Below are positions 15,312 to 15,699 of a stretch of 64,000 nt of DNA, piece by piece. A program made the translations under genes and the position numbers. Every line of letters begins with the position of its first letter. Within the stretch, counting starts at the first letter, position 1. This stretch comes from Escherichia coli (GTDB taxonomy: Bacteria; Pseudomonadota; Gammaproteobacteria; Enterobacterales; Enterobacteriaceae), in the NCBI RefSeq assembly GCF_044647545.1, contig NZ_CP172818.1. One strand, 5' to 3'. The notes beneath the pieces were generated by a model. That model saw only the letters and a program-made list of their open reading frames with translations. It made no database searches and was not told the DNA's origin.

Positions 15312-15464
15312 TTACTCGGATTCGTAAGCCGTGAAAACAGCAACCTCCGTCTGGCCAGTTCGGATGTGAACCTCACAGAGGTCTTTTCTCGTTACCAGCG
15401 CCGCCACTACGGCGGTGATACAGATGACGATCAGGGCGACAATCATCGCCTTATGCTGCTTCAT
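15312..15464 (-). CDS. hokC: Hok-family type I toxin
   Basis: 50-aa ORF MKQHKAMIVALIVICITAVVAALVTRKDLCEVHIRTGQTEVAVFTAYESE. Confidence 0.9.
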   Translation of the reverse strand: MKQHKAMIVALIVICITAVVAALVTRKDLCEVHIRTGQTEVAVFTAYESE

Positions 15465-15521
15465 TGCTCTCTTCTCCTTGACCTTACGGTCAGTAAGAGG
15501 CACTCTACATGTGTTCTGCAT
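15312..15521 (-). CDS. mokC: hokC translational-coupling reading frame
   Basis: overlapping in-frame ORF starting MQNTCRVPLTDRKVKEKRA that contains hokC; hok/mok architecture. Confidence 0.75.
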   Translation of the reverse strand: MQNTCRVPLTDRKVKEKRAMKQHKAMIVALIVICITAVVAALVTRKDLCEVHIRTGQTEVAVFTAYESE

Positions 15522-15567
15522 ATAGGGGGCCTCGGGTTGATGGTAAAATATCACTCGGGGCTTTTCT
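15513..15567 (+). ncRNA. sokC: antisense RNA of the hokC/mokC type I TA locus
   Basis: placed by the conserved hok/sok arrangement, antisense to the mokC 5' end; position by analogy, not by a structure search. Confidence 0.4.
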
Positions 15568-15699
15568 CTATCTGCCGTTCAGCTAATGCCTGAGACAGAC
15601 AGCCTCAAGCACCCGCCGCTATTATATCGCTCTCTTTAACCCATTCTGTTTTATCGATTCTAATCCTGAAGACGCCTCGCATTTTTGCGTAATTTTTTA

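Follow-up and report, generated by a model that had tools for sequence, protein, structure and literature searches.

The hokC locus of the DNA analysed here, a 64,000-nucleotide stretch of an Escherichia coli chromosome (the window), is in our judgement probably a canonical IS186-free hokC/mokC/sokC type I toxin–antitoxin locus, in which a 27-bp insertion is most likely non-biological while the organism itself most likely carries a plain empty site of the kind found in strain MS6198. The window corresponds to the start of the E. coli chromosome (thrL … dnaK, dnaJ, hokC, nhaA). As the first-pass annotation had noted, the locus is written without IS186: dnaJ–hokC is uninterrupted. IS-free hokC is the majority allele in E. 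coli and is already known. Indeed, of 5425 complete E. coli genomes 3786 (about 70%) have an unbroken dnaJ–hokC–sokC stretch, most of the remaining genomes break exactly at the right-hand IS186 junction, and IS-free hokC loci have been described before in ECOR24 (PMC3562002) and, under the name hok-1, in the AIEC strain NRG857c (PMC7232551). Transcript ends, processing, SokC expression and toxicity are treated below as predictions drawn from homology and in-silico folding.

Coding frames, antisense gene and promoters

The 50-residue hokC frame and the overlapping mokC frame are both intact, as had been stated before, according to the ORF list, the Pfam match and identity with K-12 (Table 1). 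The hokC nucleotides are identical to those of K-12 hokC (b4412), HokC carries no mutations, and its score against Pfam PF01848 (HOK_GEF) is 85.5 bits for a cutoff of 22. The mokC frame opens with the ATG at 15521, is intact and shows one nucleotide difference from K-12 leading to L2Q, the sole change in MokC; over the hokC region 15291–15660 three SNPs separate the window from K-12. With the overlapping upstream mok frame of the hok family in place, translation of mokC is, by analogy, probably coupled to that of hokC. In K-12, TadA editing of hokC converts Tyr to Cys at a level of about 9% (PMC5630033, PMC12214031). The TACG editing motif, reported for hokC, hokD and hokE, represents a regulatory layer that was absent from the first-pass annotation.

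The upstream region attributed to the sokC antisense RNA is present as well. Apart from two SNPs, at 15517 and 15527, it is identical to the annotated K-12 sokC, and it is predicted to fold into a hairpin of −27 kcal/mol followed by UUUU (z = −5.1). In the putative sokC promoter, whose region does not differ from that of K-12, the A at −11 and the T at −7 are retained; the −10 hexamer is weaker than those of the plasmid hok homologues, which read TATCCT or TAATCT. The −35 of the putative hokC promoter is weak. A simple consensus promoter scan called neither the hokC nor the sokC promoter.

Table 1. Features of the hokC/mokC/sokC locus, in positions of the window.
Feature	Position	Strand	Basis
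hokC toxin CDS, 50 aa, MKQHKAMIVALIVICITAVVAALVTRKDLCEVHIRTGQTEVAVFTAYESE	15312–15464	-	ORF list, Pfam, K-12 comparison
mokC frame, 69 aa, in-frame N-terminal extension of hokC	15312–15521	-	maps to K-12 b0018
TACG motif at hokC codon 47 (Tyr, TAC), TadA A-to-I editing site	15323–15326	-	motif located in sequence
sokC antisense RNA gene, terminator hairpin then UUUU	15513–15571	+	coordinates transferred from K-12 b4413 annotation
Putative sokC promoter: −35 TTGACC (15478–15483), 17-nt spacer, −10 CACTCT (15501–15506)	15478–15506	+	sequence reading and alignment of plasmid hok homologues
Putative hokC promoter −10, TATAAT, perfect hexamer	15621–15626	-	read from sequence; 6 nt upstream of presumed +1 at 15614
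hokC mRNA 5' leader	15462–15614	-	full-length Rfam RF01794 match and structure predictions
tac, leader element	15603–15614	-	predicted
ucb, leader element	around nt 52–58	-	predicted
mok SD GAGG, leader element	nt 82–85	-	predicted
fbi element CUUCAACGCACCC, complementary to mRNA 5' end GGGUGCUUGAGG	15224–15236	-	MFE folds, duplex search, homologue covariation
3' UTR stem-loop GGCGGGG...CCCCGCC, IS186 target GGGG-N6-CCCC	15258–15304	-	alignment with UM146, MS6198 and K-12
Intrinsic terminator of hokC, GCCUGCC-CACG-GGCAGGC then UUUU	15189–15210	-	fold −20.1 kcal/mol, z = −3.8
27-bp insertion GGGTCTCCC-A17-T	15262–15288	.	comparison with UM146 and MS6198, both of which lack it; placement ambiguous by about 3 nt

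Predicted folding and processing of the hokC transcript

The leader of the hokC mRNA matches the Rfam family RF01794 ('sok') over model positions 1–157 of 157 with 116.9 bits, the gathering score being 59. This match lies on the minus strand, that of the hokC mRNA leader, and not on the plus strand encoding SokC; the family hit therefore marks the leader and target region and not the strand of the antisense gene. Taking the full-length mRNA to run from 15614 to the terminator, which stands back-to-back with the end of dnaJ, its predicted length is 398 nt for the empty allele (MS6198) and 425 nt for the window allele. The first-pass annotation had placed the 3' fold-back element of this mRNA under the A17 tract, which turned out to be incorrect: the fbi element is intact about 35–60 nt further along the mRNA. 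The folding check proposed there came out in favour of the locus, the 5'/3' fold-back being predicted and the tac stem forming after 3' trimming. Pairing of tac with fbi appears in the MFE and centroid folds of both alleles (z = −6.7 and −6.9) with a duplex energy of −20.6 kcal/mol, and the 27-bp insertion leaves all fold predictions for the hokC mRNA unchanged, tac/fbi included. Three plasmid homologues show equal 5'/3' complementarity with compensatory changes (GGGUGC/GCACCC vs. GGCGC/GCGCC), located 365–398 nt from their 5' ends; across the homologues fbi lies 353–398 nt from the mRNA 5' end.

The GGCGGGG/CCCCGCC hairpin is situated between the hokC stop codon and fbi and, by analogy with the R1 hok mRNA, for which the role of the last stem-loop has been described (PMC9841398), probably plays the part of the protective hairpin at the 3' terminus of the processed mRNA. 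Trimming to this hairpin leaves 337 nt of the empty allele or 364 nt of the window allele; the 5' end of either form is then predicted to pair with nt 51–58 (tac/ucb stem) and the mok SD GAGG to enter the hairpin bearing the SokC target (SD/dcb). Such a switch from tac/fbi to tac/ucb has been described for R1 hok (PMC9841398). Moreover, the predicted processed length of 337 nt agrees with the '~330 nt' quoted for the hokC transcript (PMC3562002), which lends support to the RNA switch.

On the model of plasmid R1 hok/sok, a weak constitutive promoter would give rise to a hokC mRNA of roughly 400 nt, the 5' end of which (tac) would pair with fbi, yielding a locked form closed to translation and to SokC binding alike. 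As the 3' end is slowly trimmed to the GGCGGGG/CCCCGCC hairpin, fbi would be lost, and pairing of the 5' end with ucb would then free the SokC target along with the ribosome-binding site of mok. SokC, the product of the opposite strand, would then pair with the freed target and the duplex would be degraded, so that HokC would normally not be produced. Editing of Tyr47 to Cys by TadA may act as a further brake.

The first-pass annotation regarded the locus as possibly functional in the absence of IS186, and it named the features whose loss would speak against this; the fold-back element is present, the sokC promoter region is that of K-12 and HokC is free of mutations. This much of the claim stands, the elements being intact in silico. 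One could go further and regard the IS-free locus as a fully active killer, unlike the K-12 copy, serving in post-segregational killing, phage exclusion or persistence. The intactness of all regulatory elements would be compatible with such a role, as would the toxicity of HokC on overexpression (bioRxiv 10.1101/2025.08.07.668861) and the lethality of a single chromosomal R1 hok copy without Sok (PMC9841398). We nevertheless consider it unlikely. The same preprint, in summarising Pedersen & Gerdes 1999, states that ECOR24 hokC, though IS-free, confers no post-segregational killing and shows no activation by rifampicin; HokC needs Tyr-to-Cys RNA editing, which reaches only about 9% in K-12 (PMC12214031); and the −10 of sokC is weaker than those of the plasmid homologues, though identical to that of K-12. 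The question whether a locus without IS186 may be active is thus not new, and the literature, through the ECOR24 result as summarised there, has answered it mostly in the negative; the IS-free state on which it was founded is common.

The A17 tract and other anomalies of the record

The earlier suspicion that the region of the A17 tract is non-native was justified. The A17 run (15271–15287) belongs to the 27-bp insertion, which is located within the loop of the 3' hairpin, at precisely the IS186 target of K-12, and is bordered by flanks (14900–15261 and 15289–15690) that are 100% identical to MS6198. The empty site, GGGGATCACTCCCC, fits the GC-rich palindromic target GGGG(N6-7)CCCC, and K-12 as well as other strains carry IS186 exactly there. 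The junctions of IS186-bearing strains read …GGGATCACTCCC/ATAAGCGC…GCGCTTAT/GGGATCACTCCCCGCC, where the slash marks the border of the element, and a direct target-site duplication of about 10–12 bp was taken as the criterion for IS186. Compared with these junctions, the insertion reads, in order, as the left duplication minus three bases, the A-run, 'AT', with which IS186 ends, and the intact right duplication. No base is missing from the right copy, GGGATCACTCCC, whereas the left copy, GGGTCTCCC, retains 9 of 12 bases. Neither terminal inverted repeats nor a transposase gene of IS186 are found between the copies, only A17 plus T, and no CATAAGCGCTAACTTAAGGG end is seen. In the IS186-bearing strains ER1709, BS-01 and ET734 the left copy of the duplication varies (GGGATCACTCCC, GGGGATCATCCC and GGGGATCTCTCCC) with the right copy constant; the differences could be real, or sequencing may have erred at this GC hairpin, which contains a GATC site.

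The insertion might be real, either as the footprint of an excised IS186, with the target duplication left behind and an A-tract gained as filler, or as an expansion of the hairpin loop. The duplicated 12-mer and the 'AT' junction fit IS186 junctions, and the identity of both flanks with MS6198 indicates high sequence quality. The hairpin is kept and even slightly stabilised (−18.2 kcal/mol in the window allele vs. −14.5 in the empty one), tac/fbi is intact, and the homologues tolerate distances of 353–398 nt between fbi and the 5' end. That the insertion extends the hairpin and does not break it, as a real, tolerated variant would, also counts against an artefact; the loop of this at least equally stable hairpin nevertheless carries a U16–17 of doubtful authenticity. 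If real, the insertion would be a natural variant whose processed hokC mRNA carries U17 in its protective hairpin, within the loop. Polymerase slippage or partial termination after GGGA-GUGA-UCCC could then give transcripts lacking fbi, which would be bound by SokC or translated at once, and 3'-end formation, and hence fold-back release and toxin restraint, would be altered.

We regard a real insertion as very improbable. Its left junction was found in none of 5426 complete E. coli genomes, the near matches being only variants of IS186 junctions, and the 10 exact-pattern matches in GTDB representative genomes and JGI metagenomes all came from unrelated taxa, none with a hokC flank. We know of no mechanism in E. 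coli that adds a non-templated A-tract. The hairpin that would form in the nascent RNA before the U-tract has 4 bp and about −6 kcal/mol, and no terminator was called there on the minus strand by the scan; a new terminator at U17 is not supported on these grounds, an intrinsic terminator being defined by a GC-rich stem of at least 5 bp with a U-run immediately after. Retro-insertion, with poly-A and target duplication, was rejected: IS186 accounts for the duplication, which is found at its known hotspot, and the A-run has nothing on its 5' side. Finally, the succession of decay, A-run and return to reference sequence recurs at two unrelated loci. Two spurious ORFs, 15239–15334 (+) and 14979–15296 (−), cross the A17 tract with KKKKK or FFFFF stretches and are due solely to the insertion. 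Exact look-up of the plus-strand one, MRAPVKWRGLPKKKKKMGSLPAVALTRIRKP, in a protein collection returned no record, and neither of two ORFs created by the anomalies was on record by exact protein look-up.

Outside the anomalies the window is 99.98–100% identical to MS6198, the closest strain overall, and at the SNP sites separating MS6198 from K-12 it sides with MS6198 at 980 of 982. The first of the two other loci, 15700–18480 between sokC and nhaA, is an island encoding OmpK, a sulfatase and a hypothetical protein that measures about 4.0 kb in MS6198 and is represented here by a lossy copy of 2.8 kb. Whereas 98% of the reference A's survive and substitutions are almost nil, deletion removes 24% of T, 9% of G and 5% of C early on, and 61%, 66% and 44%, respectively, further into the segment. 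The losses thus rise from left to right, with A-runs of up to 16 and an AT skew reaching 0.57; the surviving ORFs do not exceed 92 aa, and 100% identity returns abruptly at the end. This lossy island looks non-biological. DGR-type or other hypermutation was rejected as its origin: practically all changes are losses of T, G or C, 98% of the A's remain, and the genome is otherwise 99.98–100% identical to MS6198. At the second locus, 51570–51765, the ccdA/ccdB type II toxin–antitoxin islet between folA and apaH has shrunk from 555 bp in MS6198 to about 195 nt; the loss is progressive and starts with G and T, the segment ends in A10, and at the left edge K-12 and MS6198 sequence is mixed at base level. 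The two loci share the same pattern, namely decay of non-A bases, a run of A10–A16 and abrupt resumption of reference-identical sequence. The window contains six A-runs of at least 10, all within the three anomalous places, compared with none in the corresponding 75 kb of MS6198.

Each anomaly coincides with a structural difference between K-12 and MS6198, these being the REP block, the IS186 site, the OmpK island and the ccdAB island, and at the edges of the OmpK and ccdAB islands K-12-specific and MS6198-specific residues are mixed base by base. At the first of these sites, two single A's are lost relative to MS6198 at 5531 and 5541, 10 bp apart, at the boundary of a K-12-only block of 114 nt that contains REP, between yaaX and yaaA (about 5540). 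A fifth structural difference is resolved in the K-12 way: an intact IS1 (21026–21794; Pfam DDE_Tnp_IS1) at exactly the junctions of K-12 IS1A replaces a 6.5-kb fimbrial/espX1 island of MS6198. Masking of IS elements was rejected as a cause of the anomalies since this IS1 is intact. It differs from K-12 IS1A at 33 positions, and carry-over from a K-12 template is therefore not proven. The IS1 junction together with MS6198-type flanks had no contiguous high-identity match among 5426 complete genomes save a K-12-like strain at 99.0%, and no complete genome covered 14900–18900 at 80% or more. A 24.5-kb query for a matching genome was confounded by IS1 copies, and strain 31B22CPO057, considered as a matching natural genome, belongs to a different lineage.

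Judged from the sequence, the record reads as a K-12-templated consensus of an MS6198-like strain, or as the product of an equivalent corruption. We know of no assembler or polisher that has base-selective decay from left to right as its textbook signature. With a K-12 template, the scar at hokC would most likely be a remnant of the IS186 of the template, and the organism would have an ordinary empty site. On the other hand, the source strain might itself carry a full IS186 at this position, in common with K-12 and about 30% of E. coli, with the 1.34 kb collapsed into A17 in the record; the locus would then be of the K-12 type with fbi cut off. The other two anomalies are lossy copies of a longer true sequence, and their re-anchoring occurs without duplication, so that the two copies of the 12-mer here would imply an element between them. 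Furthermore, strains 98203 and LR-62-2, which have the same OmpK island, carry IS186 at this site, with a dnaJ-side flank identical to that of the window. We hold such a collapse to be decidedly unlikely, given that 1339 nt (336 of them A) would have shrunk to 18 nt, far beyond the losses of roughly 55% and 90% seen elsewhere, that MS6198 has an empty site, and that a K-12-templated consensus would have kept IS186 intact in an IS186-bearing strain.

In our reading the organism most likely has an empty site, and the A17 tract is in all likelihood an error of the record. Corruption affects the hokC 3' hairpin, the OmpK/sulfatase island and the ccdAB locus, all places where the structure departs from that of K-12; before any feature located there, A17 included, is given a biological meaning, the raw reads should therefore be consulted. 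The biological weight of the locus itself is small, IS-free hokC being the norm in E. coli and already characterised, including the negative result for post-segregational killing.

Relation to known hok loci

The locus of K-12, hokC(gef)/mokC/sokC (b4412/b0018/b4413), occupies the same site between dnaJ and nhaA and has the same sokC promoter, leader, fbi and terminator as the window. It differs in that a 1.34-kb IS186A sits in the GGGG-N6-CCCC hairpin and parts fbi from the rest of the mRNA, whereas the window has only the 27-bp scar; the IS186 of K-12 has been taken to disrupt fbi and mRNA processing (PMC3562002). The IS-free wild loci of ECOR24, NRG857c (hok-1), UM146 and MS6198 have dnaJ–hokC uninterrupted, as in the window, and the sequence of MS6198 is 100% identical to the window over 14900–15690 save for the 27-bp insertion. 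Compared with the plasmid systems, the chromosomal locus has mokC in frame with hokC and, unlike plasmid hok/sok, is reported to be without post-segregational killing; the plasmid hok relatives share about 40% protein identity with HokC. The hok/mok/sok system of plasmid R1, together with flm, srnB and pnd, has in common with it a mok frame overlapping hok, a cis-antisense RNA, the tac/fbi and ucb/dcb elements (PMC9841398) and, for the empty chromosomal allele, a full-length mRNA of 398 nt.
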